64,000 bases of DNA from an uncultured Candidatus Bathyarchaeia archaeon (GTDB lineage Archaea > Thermoproteota > CALKCG01 > B24 > JAWCPE01), in the NCBI GenBank assembly GCA_964427455.1, contig CAYRUY010000001.1, positions 87,726-151,725 on the forward strand. The letters run 5' to 3'. A program made the position numbers and the translations under genes. The notes under the pieces were generated by a model that did not search any database, had not been told where the DNA came from, and was given only the letters and a program-made list of their open reading frames with translations. This document shows positions 3,594 to 62,163 of the stretch, one piece after another (within the stretch, counting starts at the first letter, position 1; each line of letters starts with the position of its first letter).

Positions 3594-3962
3594 TCATAAA
3601 AGATATCTTCGGACCATGTCAACAGCCTTGCCAAGGCTGCCAGCGCGGTAGGCGATCAAGCGCGCCCTCAATGCAGCTCTCTTCCTTAGCCCCACGGTTC
3701 TCGGCCTCACGCTCGCAAGGTCCAGCAACAGGTAGCATTTGAGGATGTCAAGCGACCTCCGGCTCGCGGGGTCTAAGTCGTGCACGTATCGGTCATACGC
3801 GGCGAAAAGCGCCTCGGCAGCCTCCTCCTCTTCTATCTCCTCGTCAGGCCCGATCGAGCTGAGCGACTGGTAGACTAGGAGGCCCGTGTAGTCATAGCTG
3901 AGCCTTCGACGCGCCAGTCTCGCCAAGTCGCGCGCGATCTCTTGAAGCTCAGCTTTCTTCAA
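3594..3962 (-). CDS. hypothetical protein
   Basis: 122-aa ORF with an acidic EEIEEEEAAE stretch. No recognisable family. Confidence 0.3.
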   Translation of the reverse strand: MKKAELQEIARDLARLARRRLSYDYTGLLVYQSLSSIGPDEEIEEEEAAEALFAAYDRYVHDLDPASRRSLDILKCYLLLDLASVRPRTVGLRKRAALRARLIAYRAGSLGKAVDMVRRYLL

Positions 3963-10399: not shown

Positions 10400-10921
10400 T
10401 CCGCCTTCTCCCTCCGGCTTGGCGCGGTCGCCAGCCCTCGGCCTCGCCGCCGCCCTAGCTTTTCCCAGCGCCGACAAGGTTTTTCTCACGCCCTACGGTG
10501 CGTTCATAGCGCCTTTCTCCATGCTTTAGGGTGGTTTCATGCCACCAAAGGAGCGCGAGATGGGCCCTGATTCAGCCGAAACCTAGCGCGGAAGGGCTCT
10601 GATTGAAGGCTCTTCTCTCAGTTGGGCATGCGTCCATTCAGCCCCCGGCCCAGAGGGTTCAAACCCTATGCTTCAGCCTCAGAGCCTTCGTCGCAGAGCT
10701 ATACCTGACCGCCAATTGTTCGATAGACCATGTCCACGAGACGCTACGGAGGGCTGCCGATCCACAGGATCTAGTCTACCTCTCGCGAGGCTCGGGCTCG
10801 GCCCGGACACTATCAGAGGGATGTCGGAAACCCATCACGCGCCGCTCAGGTCTAGGGGCCTTGAACGGACCTGTCTCCGAGCGCCTTCCGAAAAAGGATG
10901 TCAGACTGGCCGTTCCAAGAG

Positions 10922-11074
10922 CGGGCCCGGCGGGACTTTCCGCTGAAGCAGCTCAAGCCTGAGCTTTTGAACCCGCGACCCCCGGCTCTCCTCGTCCGGG
11001 CGCCTAGAGGGCCGATGCGCTCCACGTGACCCCCCGGGCTTTCGCAGGGGCTGTCCGTGCTGCGCCACGAGCCC
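10922..11074 (-). tRNA. candidate intron-containing tRNA (isotype unresolved)
   Basis: Minus-strand 5' GGGCUCGUGGCGCAGC (acceptor + D-stem) and 3' GGUC-GCGGG-UUCAAA[30-nt hairpin]U-CCCGC-CGGGCCC-G (variable, T-stem, T-loop, T-stem, acceptor, discriminator). The acceptor pairs 7/7 with one G.U. D-stem GCGC/GCGC appears once a 34-nt insert (11025-11058) is skipped. The anticodon arm UCGGC/GCCGG carries a 17-nt insert. No clean U33 could be derived by hand. Confidence 0.4.
10936..10965 (-). other. putative non-canonical tRNA intron in the T-loop (position 59/60)
   Basis: 30 nt (AGCUCAGGCUUGAGCUGCUUCAGCGGAAAG) splits an otherwise canonical GCGGG-UUCAAAU-CCCGC T-arm. It contains two internal hairpins. 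Confidence 0.4.
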
Positions 11075-11240
11075 ACTTGAGTATGTCCGTGTCTTCCTCG
11101 AGGGCTCTCGCCTTCGGGCCCGCGACACTCTGACGACGTTGGAGTACTTAAGCCTGCCCTCTGTTAGACTCGTTAGTCCATAAGCCGACCCATGCCTAGG
11201 CATCGTCTGCTCGTCAAACGAGGTAAGAATACCAGAGTAC
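11068..11240. repeat. conserved intergenic element, copy R1 (paralogous to 18995-19165)
   Basis: Blocks cttcgggcccgcgac, tacttaagcctg and catgcctaggcatcgtctgctcgt are shared with copy R2 in the same order and orientation. The minus-strand end runs into the tRNA 5' end. Confidence 0.55.
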
Positions 11241-11378
11241 GTCTCCCTCAGAACCTCATAGGGCCTATTTGAGGGAGGGAATGGACCGGGCGGGATTCCT
11301 CCCCGAACAGGTTTGAGTCGCAGGGCAATCCTGCCCTGATAGACCTATCACGTTGGACCACAGCATCTGACCGAAGGC

Positions 11379-11419: not shown

Positions 11420-12580
11420 ATGGCGAGGACAACATCGGCAATGGTTGCGTTCTTGCTCATAGGTGTGCTAGTGGGCGTCGCTGTAGGGTGGGTTGCCAAA
11501 CCGATTCCGCCTCCTGGCCCAGACTATATTCAGAGGACTGAGTACGACAAGGTGAGATCCGACTACGACAAGCTGAGGGCCGATTACGACCATACCTTAG
11601 CCCAGCTCGCGAAGCTGAAGAAGCCGGTGAAGATCGGTCTCGTAATGGCCACGGGCGGCCTAGGAGACAAGTCGTTCAACGACATCTCGTACGCGGGGGT
11701 CGTGCAGGCGAAGGAAGAGCTTGGCATAGAGTTCAGCTACGTGGAGCCCAAGGCCATAGCCGAGTACGAGGGCTTCCAGAGAGACTTCGCTAAGACCGGC
11801 GAGTACGCGCTGATCATCTGCATTGGCTTCGACCAAGCGGATGCTCTTACGAAAGTCGCCGGGGAGTACCCTAACCAGAGATTCGCAATCGTCGACATGG
11901 TCGTTGACAAGCCTAACGTGGCTTCCCTGCTCTTCAAAGCGAATGAGGGCTCCTTCCTTGTCGGCGTCATCAGCGCTATGACGACGAAGACGGGAAAGGT
12001 CGGCTTCGTAGGAGGCATGGACATTCCGCTCATCAGGGACTTCTTCATGGGATATGAAGCCGGCGCGAAGTGGGCGAGGAGCGATGTGACTGTGCTCTCA
12101 CCCGTCTTTGTAGGCGAATGGGCGAATCCAACGAAGGGGAAGGAGCTCGCTGTCTCACTAGTAGAGCTTGGAGCAGACGCCATCTACGTCGCGGCGGGAA
12201 AGAGCGGCCTAGGTGCGCTGGAGGCCGCCAATGAGAGGAACATCACGGCTTTCGGCGTTGACGCATGTCAAGACTACCTGAACCCGGCGATTCTAGCGAG
12301 CATGACGAAAAGGGTTGACCGCGCCGTCTTCGAGATGATCGTGGCCGCAACGTTTGATGAGGTCTATGGCATCTGGCATGCCTTCTTCAAGGGCGGATTC
12401 ATCGAGGGAGGCGTCAAAGAGGGATGGACAGGCTGCTGCAGGCTACCACAGGAGCAAGCTTTCTGGGAGGCCAAGTTCAACTTCACGCATACGGCGCTTC
12501 CAGCAAACGTCGTCACGAAGCTCAATGAGGCAAGAGCCGGAATCATTTCAGGAGAGATACAGGTACCACGACCATACTGA
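11420..12580 (+). CDS. BMP-family (PnrA/TmpC-like) ABC transporter substrate-binding protein, membrane-anchored
   Basis: GLVMATGGLGDKSFNDISYAGV and FVGGMDIPLIRDFFMGYEAG match PF02608. N-terminal TM anchor. Confidence 0.85.
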   Translation: MARTTSAMVAFLLIGVLVGVAVGWVAKPIPPPGPDYIQRTEYDKVRSDYDKLRADYDHTLAQLAKLKKPVKIGLVMATGGLGDKSFNDISYAGVVQAKEELGIEFSYVEPKAIAEYEGFQRDFAKTGEYALIICIGFDQADALTKVAGEYPNQRFAIVDMVVDKPNVASLLFKANEGSFLVGVISAMTTKTGKVGFVGGMDIPLIRDFFMGYEAGAKWARSDVTVLSPVFVGEWANPTKGKELAVSLVELGADAIYVAAGKSGLGALEAANERNITAFGVDACQDYLNPAILASMTKRVDRAVFEMIVAATFDEVYGIWHAFFKGGFIEGGVKEGWTGCCRLPQEQAFWEAKFNFTHTALPANVVTKLNEARAGIISGEIQVPRPY

Positions 12581-12589
12581 TGGGCCTAG

Positions 12590-14146
12590 GTGAGCTTTAA
12601 ATCCAATATCACCCCCCCTTTTTCCACCATGCCTCTGGCAGTGGAAATGAGGCAGATCACCAAGAGCTTCCCCGGCGTACTCGCAAACGACAGCATAGAT
12701 ATCGCCGTTGAAAAGGGAGAGATACACAGCCTACTCGGCGAGAACGGCGCCGGGAAAACGGTTCTGATGAGCATTCTCTACGGGCTCTACAGGCCCGACA
12801 GTGGCCAGATCCTCGTAAACGGGGAAGAAGCCGATGTAGACAGCCCAGCTAAAGCGATAAGGCTGGGCATAGGCATGGTTCACCAGCATTTCATGCTCAT
12901 ACCCAGCTTCACCGTCGCAGAGAACATAGTCTTAGGCAGAGAACTCACAAAGAACAAGATCCTCCTAGACAAGAAGAAGACACTAGGATACGCAGGGAAG
13001 TTCTGTGACCAGTACAAGATGAAAGTCGACTTGAGCGCGCCGGTCCACACCCTTCCCGTTGGCGTACAACAAAGGGTGGAGATTCTGAAGGCTCTGTACA
13101 GAGGAGCCAACATACTCATCCTCGACGAGCCGACATCCGTTCTCACACCCCAGGAAGTAGACGAACTCTTCAAAGCCATCAGAGCCCTCAAAGAACAGGG
13201 AAAGACGGTCATATTCATCTCGCACAAGCTGAAAGAGGTCATGGAGATCAGCGACAGAGTCACCGTCCTGAGAAGAGGAAGGGTAGTCGGCACAGTCAGG
13301 AAAGAGGAAAGCGATGCAGCCGAACTTGCCGAAATGATGGTAGGAAGACAGGTCTCCCTCACAACCGACAAGAAGAACGCTCAACTGGGGGACATTGTAC
13401 TCAGAGTGGAAGACGTAAAGGCCATGAATGACAGGAAGCTGCCTGCACTCAAAGGAGTAACCTTCGACATCCATGCACATGAGATACTCGGCGTAGCCGG
13501 AGTTGAAGGAAACGGACAGACCGAGCTTGTCGAGGTCCTAACAGGACTAAGGAAGGCCGTAGAAGGGAAGATCCTGCTGGAAGGACAGGAGATAACAGGC
13601 GAGCCTCCTAGCAAGAGGATCGAACTCGGGATCTCCCATGTTCCAGAGGACAGGCAGAGAACCGGTCTAATCCTAGACTTCTCGTTGAAGGAGAACCTGA
13701 TCCTCGGGGACCACAGGAACGAACCCTTCGCAAAGAACGGGATCGTCCTCGACCTCGAGGAGATCTCAAGCCATGCGGAGAAGTTGGTCGACGACTACTC
13801 GATAAGGACGCCAAGCACGGATGCTCTCACCAGACACCTGTCTGGGGGAACACAGCAGAGAGTCATCCTCGCAAGAGAGTTCAACAGAAGACCGAAACTC
13901 GTGGTTGCATCGCAGCCGACCAGAGGCCTAGACATCGGAGCCACGGAATACGTGCGGAATAAACTCGTGGAGATGAGAGACAGCGGCTGCGCAGTCCTTC
14001 TCATCTCAGCCGACCTCGACGAGGTAAGGGCATTAAGCGACAGAATCGCAGTCATCTACGAAGGCAGGATCACCATCATAGATAACTCAAAGACCGTAAG
14101 CGAGCGCGAACTCGGCCTCCTGATGGCTGGTGGTAAGACTGGGTGA
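12590..14146 (+). CDS. ABC transporter ATP-binding protein, duplicated ATPase domains (nucleoside/sugar type)
   Basis: Two Walker A/signature/Walker B sets (GENGAGKT...LSGGTQQR). The true start is probably at MPLAVEM (about 12629). Confidence 0.85.
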   Translation: MSFKSNITPPFSTMPLAVEMRQITKSFPGVLANDSIDIAVEKGEIHSLLGENGAGKTVLMSILYGLYRPDSGQILVNGEEADVDSPAKAIRLGIGMVHQHFMLIPSFTVAENIVLGRELTKNKILLDKKKTLGYAGKFCDQYKMKVDLSAPVHTLPVGVQQRVEILKALYRGANILILDEPTSVLTPQEVDELFKAIRALKEQGKTVIFISHKLKEVMEISDRVTVLRRGRVVGTVRKEESDAAELAEMMVGRQVSLTTDKKNAQLGDIVLRVEDVKAMNDRKLPALKGVTFDIHAHEILGVAGVEGNGQTELVEVLTGLRKAVEGKILLEGQEITGEPPSKRIELGISHVPEDRQRTGLILDFSLKENLILGDHRNEPFAKNGIVLDLEEISSHAEKLVDDYSIRTPSTDALTRHLSGGTQQRVILAREFNRRPKLVVASQPTRGLDIGATEYVRNKLVEMRDSGCAVLLISADLDEVRALSDRIAVIYEGRITIIDNSKTVSERELGLLMAGGKTG

Positions 14147-15215
14147 GAAGGCTCATGAGTTAGACCTAAGAGCAGGGAAACAGGTTCTGCAAGGTTTGCT
14201 CGTAGGGATACTGCCCGAGCTAGTAGCCATCATGGTTGCGTTCGTTGTTGGGGCTGTACTGCTTTACGTGACAGGATACCACCCAGTAAGCGCCTACGCG
14301 GCGATGGTCCAAGGCGCCTTCGGCGACATCTTCGGGATCGGCCAAACCCTCACGCAAGCAACACCGATCATCTTCACCGGTCTCTCCTTCCTACTTGCTT
14401 CCAGAGGCGGGCTCTTCAACATAGGGGCTGAAGGCCAACTCCTGGTCGGGGGTTTCTCAGCTGCACTCGTCGGGATATCCTTTCCGGGACTACCATCCGT
14501 AATCCATCTGCCCATAGCCATACTCGCTGCAGCTGCTGCAGGAGGTCTGTGGGGGTTCATCCCGGCGGCCCTCAAGGCGAAGCTCGGAGCTCACGAAGTC
14601 ATAACAACCATGATGCTAAGCTACGTGGCCTCGTATCTCACGAGCTACATGGCAAACTACCCGTACAAGGCGCCGGGATGGGTGGCGCAGACAGTTCCGG
14701 TCGCTCTCTCGGCACAGTTGCCCAGCATCCTTCCTCCAACGCAGCTATCAGCCTCACTCTTCCTCGCACTGCTTATGGCCGGTCTGACCTACTACATGTT
14801 CGACAAGACCACGCTGGGCTACGAGATTAGGGCTGTGGGCCTCAACCCGCGGGCGGCAGAAAGCGGCGGAATAAGCGTAACAAGAAACATCCTTCTAGCG
14901 TTAGTCCTAAGCGGCGCCCTAGCAGGCATCGGCGGAGCAGGGGAGGTCCTCGGCGTCCACAAACGCTACATAGATGGCTTCTCCCCAGGATACGGGTGGG
15001 ACGGAATCGCAGTAGCCCTCGTCGGCAGGCTTAACCCGGTAGGTGTCATCTTCGCCGCCGTCCTGTTCGGAGCCCTCAGAAGCGGAGGCATGGTGATGAC
15101 AAGAGTCGTCGGGGTTCCCCTGGACATAGTGATGATGCTCCAAGCCCTCGTGATCCTCTTCGTCGCAGCACCCATGCTCATTCAAGGCCTTCTCAGGAGG
15201 CGTCAGCATGGTTGA
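14130..15215 (+). CDS. ABC transporter permease (BMP-family system)
   Basis: Multi-TM, follows the ATPase with a 17-nt overlap. Confidence 0.8.
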   Translation: MVRLGEKAHELDLRAGKQVLQGLLVGILPELVAIMVAFVVGAVLLYVTGYHPVSAYAAMVQGAFGDIFGIGQTLTQATPIIFTGLSFLLASRGGLFNIGAEGQLLVGGFSAALVGISFPGLPSVIHLPIAILAAAAAGGLWGFIPAALKAKLGAHEVITTMMLSYVASYLTSYMANYPYKAPGWVAQTVPVALSAQLPSILPPTQLSASLFLALLMAGLTYYMFDKTTLGYEIRAVGLNPRAAESGGISVTRNILLALVLSGALAGIGGAGEVLGVHKRYIDGFSPGYGWDGIAVALVGRLNPVGVIFAAVLFGALRSGGMVMTRVVGVPLDIVMMLQALVILFVAAPMLIQGLLRRRQHG

Positions 15216-16431
15216 ACTCATTGACGTGATCAATATAGGACTCTTCGCAGCAGCGCTTCGAATGGCGACCCCGATAGCGCTAGCATCACTTGGAGGAATC
15301 TTCTCAGAGAGAGCAGGCATAACGAATATCGGCCTCGAAGGCATGATGCTGATGGGAGCTTTCTCCGGCGTAGCCATCAGCTTCTTCACGGGAGACCCCT
15401 GGCTCGGCGTCATAGCAGCAGTGCTTGTCGGGGCCCTGCTCGGCCTCCTCCACGCCGTACTCGTGGTCAGATTCGTCGGAAACCAGATCGTGAGTGGGGT
15501 CGGCATCAACATCCTCGCCATGGGCTTTACTGCATTCATGTCGCAGGTCTTCTGGGGCTCCAGAGGGGCCTCCGAGAGCGTCCAAGGCCTAAGGGAAGTA
15601 TCTATCCCACTCCTCAGAGACATCCCGCTGATCGGACCGGTAATCGGAACGCACACGCCCTTCGTCTACCTGATGCTGATCATAACCATCCTGTCACACG
15701 TCTTGCTCTTCAGGACACCCTTTGGGCTCAGGATAAGAGCTGTAGGCGAGCACCCTGCAGCAGCCGACTCAGCCGGCGTAAACGTCTTCAGGACCAAGTA
15801 CCTCTGCGTAGTGCTGAGCGGCATGCTCGCAGGCCTGGGCGGGGCATTCCTCTCCCTAGGCCACCTGAACCTGTTCGCTTGGGGGATGACGGGCGGCCGC
15901 GGTTTCATAGCCATGGCAGCCATGATCTTCGGCAAGTGGATGCCCTTCGGAGCCTTCTGGGCCAGCCTCCTCTTCGGCTTCTCAGACGCGCTGCAGATGA
16001 GGCTCCAGTCCCTAGGGCTCATGCCACCCCAGATCATACTGGCAATCCCCTACGTGCTCACAATAGCAGTGCTAGCTGGCGCCGTTGGTAGGGCGAATCC
16101 ACCGAGCGACTACAAACCCTACGTCAAGGAACGCCCGCGTCGTGCTAGACCTCGGCTAGTGCGGTTACCGCGGAGACTGCTGTCCTCTGTTAAGCGACTG
16201 CGGAGTACGACGCATATGGCTCCAGCTTTGGCGCCGCCTACCATTGCCAGCCTAAGGAGGCAACTCGCTTCTATCTCCTCTTCTCCAGCATCTCCTTCAC
16301 TACTCTCACACCCTCCTCCGACAACTCCCTTGCCTTCTCCGGGGAAGGCGAATCCACGTACACCCGCACTACAGGCTCAGTTCCCGAGAGCCGAATCAGC
16401 AACCACGAACCATCATCATAAACGTACTTAA
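15208..16431 (+). CDS. ABC transporter permease (BMP-family system), C-terminal tail questionable
   Basis: The permease core ends near VGRANPPSDYKPYVKE (about 16130). The ORF continues another 100 low-complexity Pro/Arg/Ser-rich codons into the convergent PGM gene. Confidence 0.7.
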   Translation: MVELIDVINIGLFAAALRMATPIALASLGGIFSERAGITNIGLEGMMLMGAFSGVAISFFTGDPWLGVIAAVLVGALLGLLHAVLVVRFVGNQIVSGVGINILAMGFTAFMSQVFWGSRGASESVQGLREVSIPLLRDIPLIGPVIGTHTPFVYLMLIITILSHVLLFRTPFGLRIRAVGEHPAAADSAGVNVFRTKYLCVVLSGMLAGLGGAFLSLGHLNLFAWGMTGGRGFIAMAAMIFGKWMPFGAFWASLLFGFSDALQMRLQSLGLMPPQIILAIPYVLTIAVLAGAVGRANPPSDYKPYVKERPRRARPRLVRLPRRLLSSVKRLRSTTHMAPALAPPTIASLRRQLASISSSPASPSLLSHPPPTTPLPSPGKANPRTPALQAQFPRAESATTNHHHKRT

Positions 16432-17626
16432 GACCATCAATCTCCACCAACCTTGTGTTCGGAGGCCTGAAACCTCCCTTCACCTTCTCCACGAGCGATG
16501 CCACCTTCTTAGGTTGGCCTCTCAGATTCCTTTTGACCTGGACATGCCTTGGAAACCCGGAGGCTATATCTGAAAGAACGCGTCGGGCCCTTGCTAGTAT
16601 GACGGCCATGAAGGCCGTCGCAATTATCCCGTCAGCCCAAGGCACTTTCGGGGGAAAGAAGTACTTGCCGGTCTCCTCGTAACCGAACCTCGCGTTATGG
16701 CGCTTTATCGCAAGCGAGATCTCCGGAGGCCCAATCCTACACTCCTCCACCCTACCCTTCCACACAGTCCTCATCAAGCCGGACGAGTTGACCGGCATCA
16801 CGCAGACGCCCGGGCCTGAATCGTACAGGTACCTTGCGAATATGGCCGCCGCGAGATCCTCAGAAAGCGGGGTACCCGTCTCGTCTACGAAGAGCACCCT
16901 ATCGCAATCAGCGTCATAGGCTGCGCCGAAATTAACCTTCCTCCACCGCACTAGCGCCCTCAGATCCTCAACGTTGTCTGCTCTGGGCTCCATAAGCCTC
17001 GGTGCGACGCCCGTTCGTTCGTCGTTTATGGCCACAGCGTCACACCCTAGGTCCATCAGCAGTCTTGAGATGACGCCAGCGCCAGTTCCGCCCGCAGGGT
17101 CCAAGGCTACGGACACGCCTTTGTCTAGAAGGCTGTCACCAACCATGATTCCTCGGACGAATCTTGTGTATGACGGCATCCAGGTTGGGTCTAATTCGGC
17201 CAGAGCGCCTCCCACATCAGTTCCAGGCGGCTCGATCTGGCCAGCTAGTTCCTCTATCTCCGCGGTCTTTTCACGTGACAGTATAGTGCCATCAGAATCT
17301 ACTGGGATGAGTCCGATGCGGTCGTAGGATAGGTGAGAGCCAGTGGCCATCAGCCCGCCTCGGAGCCCCCGCTCCGCGATCTGCTGAGAGAGTATCGGTG
17401 ATGGTATCACACCGAAGTTCTGAACCTGTACGTCTTCGGAGATCATCGCTGAGGCGCAGACGCCTGCCAGTTCCTCCGCCCCTGGCCTAGTATCATAACC
17501 AAGAGCCAACCTAGAGCCTTTACCGAAGAACCGTGCTAGGGCCTCCGAAGCCACATGGCAGAGCTGCGGCGTAACCTCTAGGTAGGTTAACCCCCTGATG
17601 CCTGCCGTGCCGAAACGCACGTTCAT
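16271..17626 (-). CDS. phosphoglucomutase/phosphomannomutase-family protein, likely phosphopentomutase
   Basis: MNVRFGTAGIRG start, GYDTRPG, active-site region ATGSHLSYD (Ser-His), four-domain length of 451 aa. It sits between the nucleoside ABC transporter and deoC, as archaeal phosphopentomutases do. Confidence 0.7.
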   Translation of the reverse strand: MNVRFGTAGIRGLTYLEVTPQLCHVASEALARFFGKGSRLALGYDTRPGAEELAGVCASAMISEDVQVQNFGVIPSPILSQQIAERGLRGGLMATGSHLSYDRIGLIPVDSDGTILSREKTAEIEELAGQIEPPGTDVGGALAELDPTWMPSYTRFVRGIMVGDSLLDKGVSVALDPAGGTGAGVISRLLMDLGCDAVAINDERTGVAPRLMEPRADNVEDLRALVRWRKVNFGAAYDADCDRVLFVDETGTPLSEDLAAAIFARYLYDSGPGVCVMPVNSSGLMRTVWKGRVEECRIGPPEISLAIKRHNARFGYEETGKYFFPPKVPWADGIIATAFMAVILARARRVLSDIASGFPRHVQVKRNLRGQPKKVASLVEKVKGGFRPPNTRLVEIDGLKYVYDDGSWLLIRLSGTEPVVRVYVDSPSPEKARELSEEGVRVVKEMLEKRR

Positions 17627-17638
17627 TCTTTCTTTATC

Positions 17639-18304
17639 CTATCCTAGGCGTGCGCCCTCAACTATCTGGATGCTCGCACTCGCGCCTATTCGGTTGGCGC
17701 CCGCCCTGATCAACTCCATGGCCGTCGCGTAATCCCTTATTCCACCAGCTGCCTTCACCCCAAGCCGTTCGCCTACCGTCTCCCGCATCAGCCTAACCGC
17801 CTGAACCGTCGCTCCCGACGGCCCGAAGCCTGTTGAGGTCTTCACAAAACCCGCGCCCGCCCTCTCCGCAACCTTGCAGGCCTCCACAATCCCGCTATCG
17901 TCAAGGTAGCATACCTCGATTATCACCTTTACAATCCTACCGTCTGCAGCCCGTACAACCCCCCTAATGTCCCTCTCAACGTAGCCTATGTCGGCATCAA
18001 GCAGCTTCCCTATGTTCATCACCATGTCTAACTCGTCCACTCCCTCTTCCACAGCAGTCTCTGTCTCCACGGCCTTCGACGCAGTACCTGTAGCCCCAAA
18101 CGGAAACCCTACCACAGAGCATGCCTTGACATCAGAACCAGAAAGCCTGGAGACACATCTTGCCACCCTTGAAGGGTTGACGCACACGGAGTAAAAGCCA
18201 TACTCCAAAGCCTCATCACAAAGCTTGTCCACTTGGCTGACTGTCGCATTCGGCTTCAGCAAGGTATGATCGATCATCTTCGCAAGGTCTTTAGGATCCA
18301 TCAA
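17639..18304 (-). CDS. deoC: deoxyribose-phosphate aldolase
   Basis: DeoC TIM-barrel over the full length. HTLLKP, SVCVNP and Schiff-base lysine context FVKTSTGF. Confidence 0.85.
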   Translation of the reverse strand: MMDPKDLAKMIDHTLLKPNATVSQVDKLCDEALEYGFYSVCVNPSRVARCVSRLSGSDVKACSVVGFPFGATGTASKAVETETAVEEGVDELDMVMNIGKLLDADIGYVERDIRGVVRAADGRIVKVIIEVCYLDDSGIVEACKVAERAGAGFVKTSTGFGPSGATVQAVRLMRETVGERLGVKAAGGIRDYATAMELIRAGANRIGASASIQIVEGARLG

Positions 18305-18518: not shown

Positions 18519-18968
18519 TTGCGCTGGCCTTGTCATAACCCTGGTGAGATACGGGATATGGCGTTGCAGGAAGAGGAAGCCCGGTTCAGTGGCAAATCGA
18601 TCCAGGAAAAACTGTTGGTATATACAGCCCAGTCTGTCAGGAACTTTGCCTATAGGATGCTCATATGCAAACATGTGTTGGATATGGGTTATGTCCCTTT
18701 AAATCCGTTCAATCTCTGGGGGGGGCATTACCTGTACGAGTTAGTGGATCGCGATGTTGTTAGGAATGCGAATAACAATCTCATAAGAAGGGTAGACGAA
18801 GTGTGGGTCTTCTGGGACATTTCCGACGGGGTTCTACCTGAGACAAATCTGGCAAAGGAGTCAGGTAAACCTGTTAGATACTTCAACATTGACGATCTCC
18901 CTAGATCCATTGTGGGAATCGAAGAGGACCAAGTTAGATACGAAGAGGGTGTTCATTGGCAAAGATGA
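18519..18968 (+). CDS. small protein, nucleoside 2-deoxyribosyltransferase-like fold (DUF4406/DNPH1-like?), low-GC island
   Basis: NP...VDEVWVFWDISDGVLPETNLAKESGKPVRYF follows the NDT-superfamily pattern. The region is visibly AT-richer than its flanks. Family call is tentative. Confidence 0.35.
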   Translation: MRWPCHNPGEIRDMALQEEEARFSGKSIQEKLLVYTAQSVRNFAYRMLICKHVLDMGYVPLNPFNLWGGHYLYELVDRDVVRNANNNLIRRVDEVWVFWDISDGVLPETNLAKESGKPVRYFNIDDLPRSIVGIEEDQVRYEEGVHWQR

Positions 18969-30556: not shown

Positions 30557-31474
30557 GTGATGGACCCCAAACTCTATAGGAATGGAAGGCCCGAGAACAC
30601 TGAACAGGCTAGCATTAGGGGAATAAGTTTGGTTCGAGGCGTCTTCCTGACCGCTCCGTACGATGTTCAGATCACGGAGTTTGACAGACCCAAGTTTCCT
30701 CAGAAGGCTGTCTTAGCCAGGACGGTGATGTGTGGGGTTTGTGGTATTGACGTTCATATGTACAAGGGCACGGTTCCCATCGTGGACCCGATTCCTCTCG
30801 GCCATGAATGGGTTGGGAGGATCGAGGAGATAGGGCAGAAAGCTGAGGCTGAAGACCTCTGGGGTCAGGAGCTCAGAGTAGGGGACCTCATCATTCCGGG
30901 CTTCTCGTCTCAAGGCTGCGGAAGATGCATCTACTGCAAGTTCTACATGAAGCCATACCTCTGCGTCTCCTCTAAGGGAGACCCCTTCGAGAAGACTAAA
31001 GCGCGCGGGATCGTCAGGCCAACTGTGTTCGATGTTGGAGGTTACTGTGACTACAGGTACGTTTTCCCCAATGGTTGGGTCTACAAGGTTCCAGGGGATC
31101 TCCCACCTGAGGTCGCGGTGTTAACAGAGCATTTCTCCACCGCCCTGCATGTCGGAGACTACGCGGGCAAAGAGGGGCTCACTGTGGTAGTGCAGGGATC
31201 TGGGCCTATCGGGCTCCTCTCAGTGATGGCAGTGAAACTGAGTGGGGCAGCGACCACCATCGTGGTAGGCGCCCCCGAAGGGAGGCTGAGGCTCTGCAAG
31301 GAATTCGGAGCAGGCTACGCCATCAGCATCCAAGAGGTGCCCGAGGCCGAGGACCGAATCAGGAGCGTGAAAAAGCTTACCCGTGCTGGTGCAGGCGCAG
31401 ACGTGGTGGTTGAGGCTGCGGGCACCCCAGAGGCTTTCACAGAGGGGCCTGCGCCACGAGTTGTCGCAAGCTGA
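30557..31474 (+). pseudogene. zinc-dependent alcohol dehydrogenase (MDR) family, 3'-truncated
   Basis: CGVCGIDVHMY and GHEWVGRIEEIG zinc ligands plus the Rossmann GSGPIGL are present. The ORF stops after the coenzyme domain begins, with about 100-140 aa missing. No continuation in any frame before the convergent nucS. Confidence 0.45.
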
Positions 31475-31596
31475 GGCTTGTCCCAACCCGCCGTATCCGG
31501 GCCCGGGTTGTCATGCGATGTCGCTTTCTTAAAGCCTTCCGTGGCGAGGGGAACTGTGTCCCCGATCCTGTCTTCCAGTCCTCCTGTCTGAGGCAT

Positions 31597-61672: not shown

Positions 61673-62163
61673 TCAGCCGTGCGGTCTAGGATGCGGACCG
61701 TGCCCAGGTGACAGGTGGGCATAGTATCCGGGAGGATGCCGGCCGCCGCTTCATCGTGCGTTCACAGCGCCTCTCACCATGCTTTACCGTGCGTTTCATG
61801 TGACCAAGGGAGCCCCCGGGAGGCCCTGATTCAACGGGAACATAGCGCGGACAGGCCCTAGTTGAGAACCCTCTTTCTCAGCCTTGAAAGCGGAGGTGTG
61901 GGCAGTCTGGCCTGCGATGCGGCTACGGCGCCCGAGGTGTTGACGATTCCCGAACCGTAGGCAACATGGGCGACGCAAGGAGCAGGGCTGCGAGCAAGAG
62001 GAGGCCCGGGCCCTTACGGCTTAACCCCAGCTCAGAAACCGTTTTCGATCACCGAATACACCGCTGCTATCCATGTTTCGGTTTTTTCGTGTCTGAGGCT
62101 GTGTGCCGTCTGAAGAAAGAATGATAAGGTGTTCAGCCTATCTCGAACGCCAGGGTTGGACAC

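Follow-up and report, generated by a model that had tools for sequence, protein, structure and literature searches.

A three-intron tRNA-Arg(UCU) gene in an uncultured Bathyarchaeia archaeon and its four-intron relatives

Archaeal tRNA genes carry up to three introns, according to the paper describing tRNAscan-SE 2.0 (PMC8450103), and 20/21, 37/38 and 59/60 are all published intron positions (PMC4090602, PMC8450103). Among the closest described systems is the tRNA-Pro(UGG) gene of Pyrobaculum islandicum, which is interrupted at 25/26, 37/38 and 56/57 (PMC4090602); an intron at 3/4 was also published for Thermoproteales in 2008, as relayed by PMC4090602. A eukaryotic counterpart is the nuclear tRNA-Ile(UAU) gene of Cyanidioschyzon merolae, which is interrupted in the D-arm, at 37/38 and in the T-loop, and the multi-intron precursors of this organism were seen by RT-PCR to be spliced stepwise (PMC3728597). 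Here, we analyzed a 64-kb stretch of archaeal DNA (the window), for which a reading of the letters alone, referred to below as the original prediction, had proposed a tRNA-like gene broken up by several inserts.

Inspection of the minus strand from 11074 to 10922, in a 1-kb intergenic interval flanked by protein genes, revealed a tRNA-Arg(UCU) gene of an uncultured Bathyarchaeia archaeon, composed of four exons and three introns bounded by bulge-helix-bulge (BHB) motifs (Table 1). As read on that strand, the 5' part runs GGGCUCG UG GCGC AGCACGGAC (31 nt) A GCGC A UCGGC CCUCUA, with the acceptor strand at 11074-11068 and the two D-stem halves at 11065-11062 and 11020-11017; the 3' part continues (17 nt) A GCCGG GGGUC GCGGG UUCAAA (30 nt) U CCCGC CGGGCCC G, and the sequence read at the 3' end of exon 4 encodes no CCA. 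Every element listed in the original prediction of a tRNA-like gene on the minus strand is found in this arrangement, including the 5' acceptor and D-stem, the T-stem GCGGG/CCCGC, the acceptor strand CGGGCCC and the discriminator G at 10922. The variable region has 5 nt, GGGUC, and not the GGUC that had been noted.

When the exons are joined, the resulting 75 nt form a full cloverleaf that ARAGORN calls as tRNA-Arg(tct); together with the anticodon loop CCUCUAA (C32 C33 U34 C35 U36 A37 A38), this call settles the isotype, which had been left open, as arginine (UCU). The spliced product holds the tertiary pairs and nucleotides U8-A14, G15-C48, G18 G19 and G53-C61, an archaeal T-loop (UUCAAAU), and A20, C35 and U36, in agreement with an arginine identity. 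Intron-less tRNA-Arg(UCU) genes, which measure 74-75 nt, are identical to it at up to 69 of 75 positions, and its 5' 29 nt, a part that the search pattern did not constrain, agree with an uninterrupted tRNA-Arg(UCU) at 25 of 29. The original observation is confirmed. We put the probability at roughly 0.88 that 11074-10922 is a working tRNA-Arg(UCU) gene whose four exons would be joined after protein-mediated splicing at 20a/21, 37/38 and 59/60.

Table 1. Features of the tRNA-Arg(UCU) locus and of the sequences connected with its 5' end. In the BHB strings, bulges stand in parentheses with the splice site marked by a slash.
Feature	Position	Strand	Description
Exon 1	11053..11074	-	Acceptor 5' strand GGGCUCG, U8 G9, D-stem GCGC, D-loop AGCACGGAC; positions 1-20a
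Intron 1	11022..11052	-	31 nt, D-loop, 20a/21; relaxed BHB ACGG(AC/A)...ACGU(GG/A)
Exon 2	11005..11021	-	A21, D-stem GCGC, A26, anticodon stem UCGGC, C32 C33 U34 C35 U36 A37
Intron 2	10988..11004	-	17 nt, canonical, 37/38; strict hBHBh' ucggc CCUC(UA/G)g...c GAGG(AG/A) gccgg
Exon 3	10966..10987	-	A38, anticodon stem GCCGG, variable region GGGUC, T-stem GCGGG, T-loop UUCAAA (54-59)
Intron 3	10936..10965	-	30 nt, T-loop, 59/60; BHB gcggg UUCA(AA/A)gcu...agc GGAA(AG/U) cccgc
Exon 4	10922..10935	-	U60, T-stem CCCGC, acceptor 3' strand CGGGCCC, discriminator G73
TATA-like box (predicted)	11145..11152	-	CTTAAGTA; sole promoter-like element upstream; 77 nt before G1
Presumed 5' leader	11075..11125	-	Would start near GGGCCCG at 11122-11116; ~50 nt
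T5 run, likely archaeal terminator	10891..10895	-	27 nt beyond the 3' end of the gene
Orphan 5' fragment of the same tRNA-Arg gene	31449..31534	-	TATA CTTTAAGA, leader, G1-G3 (31484-31482), intact 21-nt 3/4 intron (31481-31461), then CUCGUGGCGCAG (31460-31449)
Repeat module	11069..11214	-	~145 nt; supplies promoter, leader and G1-C6 of the gene; second copy at 19139-18993

Neither ARAGORN at its default settings nor Rfam at gathering thresholds reports a tRNA anywhere in the 64-kb window. Relaxing the Rfam thresholds over the gene region produced chance matches only, and the intron search that had been suggested for the raw DNA did not recover the gene: ARAGORN with intron options or lowered thresholds returned spurious calls only, and on unspliced or partly spliced DNA it gives no correct tRNA. 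Because the default tools overlook genes of this kind, the tRNA complements and completeness estimates of Bathyarchaeia metagenome-assembled genomes (MAGs) are likely too low.

To define the introns, each possible splice pair was scored for a 4-bp helix lying between two 3-nt bulges on opposite strands. BHB-compatible folding is present at all three junctions, that in the D-loop being of the relaxed type, and the three inserts that had been suggested are all introns with BHB-type junctions; the proposed reading of the locus as a multi-intron archaeal tRNA gene is right. The canonical motif at 37/38 is perfect, with 4/4 pairs in the central helix and 5 in the outer one, and the 24 nt that the anticodon arm UCGGC/GCCGG had been seen to enclose correspond to the 7-nt loop CCUCUAA plus the 17-nt intron, the length originally estimated for this insert being correct. 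At 59/60, the window has 3/4 central, 5 outer and 3 inner pairs (4/4 central pairs in an orthologous gene, L209), and the original coordinates of this 30-nt T-loop insert, 10936-10965, prove exact. The 20a/21 motif combines 3/4 central pairs and a conserved G-A with an outer helix of 2 and an inner helix that is weak in the window, yet covaries among orthologues.

Since the 20a/21 BHB is relaxed, the exact D-loop junction is uncertain, and by sequence alone it may fall at 20a/21, 21/22 or 22/23. All three placements give the same 10-nt loop, AGCACGGACA, which matches those of intron-less tRNA-Arg(UCU) genes with a GCGC D-stem (loops AGYYWGGAYR). The D-loop insert of the original prediction is real, but lies 3-6 nt away from the position given for it, the intron occupying 31 nt at 11052-11022 rather than 34 nt at 11058-11025. 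The latter placement would yield the 7-nt loop AGCUGGA, whereas BHB geometry, four orthologues and uninterrupted relatives favor the 10-nt form. With z = -1.34, the precursor does not fold with significantly unusual energy, and folding energy is uninformative as a test in GC-rich DNA, in which BHB-like matches are also frequent here by chance; the case for the introns accordingly rests on comparison with related genes and not on structure prediction.

As to the host, the original prediction had likened it to Thermoproteales, but the nearest relatives of three proteins encoded in the window come from Bathyarchaeia MAGs: the binding protein at 11420 is 56-66% identical to its best relatives, NucS is 75% identical to a homologue in a named Bathyarchaeia MAG, and the best relatives of a URO-D-like protein fall in the same group. 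These affinities place the host outside Thermoproteales. Exact-protein look-ups of four window proteins found no record. Genes orthologous to the tRNA gene were located in the same neighborhood, between NucS and URO-D, in L172, which was found by a pattern scan, and in L202, L203-L206 and L209, which were reached by following the NucS and URO-D homologues to their contigs; L204-L206 match L203 exactly, and this version is represented by two NCBI MAGs together with two independent SRA assemblies. Synteny is lost in the more distant URO-D relatives L210-L212. From the other side of the gene, none of 80 loci retrieved through the BMP-family binding protein (11420-12580) contains a homologue of the intergenic region, and in L213, a closer relative, shared DNA begins only at 11368. 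Separately, we noted a conserved element of ~100 nt upstream of the URO-D-like gene (window, 10513-10611; L172, 3515-3614), of which the window has a second copy at 61771-61866.

Alignment of the orthologous loci shows that exons and introns have followed different courses. The spliced products are identical at 73-75 of 75 positions, with the window, L172 and L209 agreeing at 75/75 and the L203 and L202 products having one differing position each; exon 1 is the same in L172, L202 and L209, and has a single change, C20a to U, in L203. The flanking genes of L172 are 78-83% identical to the window in nucleotide sequence, the flanking DNA of L172 and L209 is 72-83% identical, and the inserts share 45-77% identity among orthologues. 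Examination of the diverging inserts indicates that their pairing has been kept. The 59/60 intron recurs as a 29-nt insert in L203 and as a 21-nt insert with a perfect BHB in L209, and its inner helix covaries, reading GCU/AGC in the window, ACCCAG/UUGGGU in L203 and UGG/CCA in L209, where the central helix UUCA/UGAA is perfect; the inner helix at 20a/21 likewise reads GGCCCUUU/AAAGGGUC in L202 and AGCCCC/GGGGCU in L203. Near-invariant exons beside diverging but still paired introns are the mark of selection on the exons and of a constraint on the introns from the splicing motif alone.

One of these orthologues differs in its decoding. At the same locus, L202 (3913-4073) has the anticodon UCG rather than UCU; its flanks and 3/4 intron are identical to those of L172, and its D-loop and anticodon introns are strongly different despite these L172-like flanks. 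These features suggest either a switch of anticodon or a gene conversion among tRNA genes for arginine. The JGI sample that yielded L202 is also the source of L201 and L207, both of which are near-identical to the window; near-identical contigs occur in JGI samples 3300031876 and 3300031593.

Among metagenome contigs, a pattern scan detected 120 tRNA-Arg(UCU) genes, many with the same body as the window gene, against which its individual features could be set. The 59/60 intron occurs in none of the 120. D-loop introns at 20/21 are present in several, in other lineages as well; in these genes the 20/21 intron has a strict BHB that reproduces the sequence found in uninterrupted relatives, as in L106 compared with L088. 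A subset (within L082-L200) with C33 and a canonical intron of 13-17 nt, many of its members on soil-metagenome contigs, has the same UCGGC-CCUCUAA-GCCGG arm and the same T-arm as the window gene, and in these genes, as here, the 3' end of the canonical intron pairs with C32-C35; the subset differs from the window gene in having a single intron, the acceptor strand GGGCCCG and other D-arms.

U33 is near-universal in anticodon loops. The original prediction had failed to derive a U33-containing loop, and U33 is in truth absent: the window has C33 (at 11008), as do 64 of the 120 metagenomic genes, ten of which lack any intron. The missing U33 is thus a trait of the lineage, and not an error or an artefact of splicing. 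C33 would persist in the mature tRNA, and its presence in a widely distributed elongator tRNA makes a testable exception to the U33 rule. The only archaeal C33 that we found in the literature consulted is that of tRNA-Cys in Sulfolobales (PMC7668247).

We turn now to the 5' end of the gene, where the orthologues depart from the window. The bases directly before U8 in the relatives are ACAGCUCG or ACAACUCG, with which no 7-bp acceptor stem is possible. An unrestricted BHB scan revealed a strict motif kept in all of them, cgg GUUG(GG/A)caagc...gcuug CGAC(AG/C)ucg, the inner helix of which covaries (CAAGC/GCUUG, CAAGUCU/AGGCUUG, CAGGC/GCCUG). This motif defines an intron of 21-27 nt at 3/4, and on its removal the mature 5' strand becomes GGGCUCG, the sequence that is contiguous in the window at 11074. 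The window gene thus has three introns, as do L172 and L202 (at 3/4, 20a/21 and 37/38), and four BHB introns (3/4, 20a/21, 37/38 and 59/60) are found in L203 (6893-7085; identical in L204, L205 and L206) and in L209 (minus strand, about 3717-3920).

The window admits a different parsing of this region, in which GGGCCCG at 11122-11116 serves as the 5' exon, a fourth intron of 47 nt (11115-11069) interrupts the gene at 7/8, and GGGCUCG is merely the end of that intron. GGGCCCG perfectly complements the CGGGCCC of the 3' strand. Its distance from the TATA-like box is 23 nt in the window copies and 22-23 nt in all five loci, and the proposed sites allow a central helix of 4/4 pairs between two 3-nt bulges. 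This motif, however, has no flanking helices, retains just 2-3 of its 4 pairs in the relatives and degrades in L209; moreover, GGGCCC is palindromic, so that such pairings arise by default. Once the strict and covarying hBHBh' of the relatives had placed the 5' intron at 3/4, giving GGGCUCG, the 7/8 intron was dropped, and we consider it very improbable.

A second site suggests how the window gene may have come to lack the 3/4 intron. The promoter, leader, G1-G3, 3/4 intron and CUCGUGGCGCAG of the relatives are homologous not to the sequence upstream of 11074 but to 31534-31449, an orphan 5' fragment of the tRNA-Arg gene whose BHB is complete (central helix 4/4, outer 4, inner 5). The fragment is fused to a threonine-dehydrogenase-like gene (30557-31474) that is truncated at its 3' end, at ~250 of 340 profile positions, and the junction is confirmed by an independent contig, L201, at 99.9% identity. 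A 12-nt direct repeat, CTCGTGGCGCAG, at 31460-31449 and 11070-11059 bounds 20.4 kb (11059-31460) that are missing from L172, L202, L203 and L209; a partial tRNA duplication in the form of flanking direct repeats, as expected of a mobile element integrated in a tRNA gene, is therefore present. The inserted segment contains nucleoside and amino-acid transporter operons, a phosphomutase, DeoC, two asparaginases and a peptidase; searches of its larger ORFs (12.6-31.5 kb) with Pfam, NCBIfam and PHROGs detected transport and metabolic genes only, and no integrase or other mobility genes. An integrated virus or plasmid at 11-31.5 kb was considered and rejected, there being no integrase or phage-like genes and two scans of viral contigs having come back empty. 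As a separate observation, 11420-18304 resembles a gene cluster for taking up and degrading nucleosides. It encodes the BMP-family binding protein and an ABC ATPase, along with two permeases, a phosphomutase and a DeoC-type aldolase, and a nucleoside 2-deoxyribosyltransferase-like ORF (18519-18968) comes after it.

With a promoter of its own and a T-run downstream, the 5' fragment, on the same strand as the gene and 20 kb away from it, might call to mind a split tRNA, with the 31.5-kb fragment and the 11-kb body transcribed apart and joined in trans. The body at 11074, however, already has a complete 5' exon, so that the gene is complete in cis; the sequence downstream of the fragment is the antisense of the truncated dehydrogenase gene, and the energy of a duplex between fragment and body leader falls within the range of shuffled controls. 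We give this arrangement hardly any credence.

In the window, the 5' end of the tRNA gene is instead formed by the repeat module. Its two copies are 77% identical, contain the palindrome ATGCCTAGGCAT, the TATA-like GGCTTAAGTA and GGGCCCGAAG, and end in GUGGGCUC; the copy at 19139-18993 is followed by unrelated sequence, and neither the fetched loci nor viral contigs contain a match to the module. Taken together, the two sites probably derive from an ancestral four-intron gene (3/4, 20a/21, 37/38, 59/60), which would only just have shed one intron when the 20.4-kb insertion brought in the module that recreates the spliced 5' end. The old promoter, G1-G3 and the 3/4 intron, still intact, would have been displaced by it to 31.5 kb. 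Only one assembly covers the junction near 11069, since L207, which might have supplied an independent one, stops at 10823; all three introns lie downstream of this junction, and the question of the insertion thus leaves them unaffected.

The same rearrangement could be taken to mean that the gene is a decaying pseudogene, deprived of its original promoter, leader and first intron, with the cloverleaf a recent relic. Its 5' flank has indeed been replaced relative to all relatives, the orphan fragment and the 20.4-kb insertion exist, the leader is long (about 50 nt), and one assembly only shows the new junction. Against such decay, the exons are identical to those of L172 and L209 at 75/75 while the flanking DNA is just 72-83% identical, all three BHBs of the window are intact, the replacement module supplies a TATA-like box and restores G1-C6 exactly, and no second tRNA-Arg(UCU) gene was seen within the 64-kb window. 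We therefore regard a pseudogene as improbable and retain the reading of a working gene.

A counterpart of the TATA-like box, CTTTAAGA/CTTAAGA, precedes the gene in L172, L202, L203 and L209. Following archaeal tRNA processing as reviewed in PMC4090602, transcription would be driven by the TATA-like box near 11150 and stop at the T5 run near 10893, and the ends would be trimmed by RNase P, which would remove the 5' leader, and by tRNase Z. A splicing endonuclease of the broad-specificity type that accepts non-canonical sites would cut in both bulges of every BHB, after which an RtcB-type ligase would join the exons and circularize the introns; CCA would be added post-transcriptionally.

Set against the described systems, L203 and L209 go beyond the three introns recorded as the limit for a tRNA gene, and our search of the literature found no report of an archaeal tRNA gene with four; if the ancestral gene was as we propose, it likewise had one intron more than has been published for a tRNA gene of any archaeon. 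With respect to the 3/4 introns published for Thermoproteales, as far as PMC4090602 relays them, L172, L202, L203, L209 and the orphan fragment of the window have a strict BHB at exactly that position, whereas the working copy in the window is without it and L203 and L209 carry it as part of a set of four. The orthologue series, in which some members have the T-loop intron and others lack it, and in which the 3/4 intron is variously present, absent or orphaned, amounts to a compact natural experiment on how introns are gained and lost. Notable by-products of the analysis are the orthologues with four introns, the wide occurrence of C33 and the orphaned 5' fragment.

The three BHB introns of C. 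merolae tRNA-Ile(UAU) follow the same layout of D-arm, anticodon and T-arm sites, but in a eukaryotic nucleus, with a different endonuclease and with an intron in the D-stem where ours lies in the D-loop. The three-intron genes of Thermoproteales also have one canonical and two non-canonical short BHB introns and are missed by standard finders. The non-canonical sites here, 20a/21 and 59/60, differ from those of P. islandicum tRNA-Pro(UGG), the combination of 20a/21, 37/38 and 59/60 was not found for tRNA-Arg in the literature consulted, and the host belongs to another class, Bathyarchaeia. A multi-intron tRNA gene is a known kind of gene, earlier descriptions of which came mainly from Thermoproteales, and the same architecture is found here in Bathyarchaeia.
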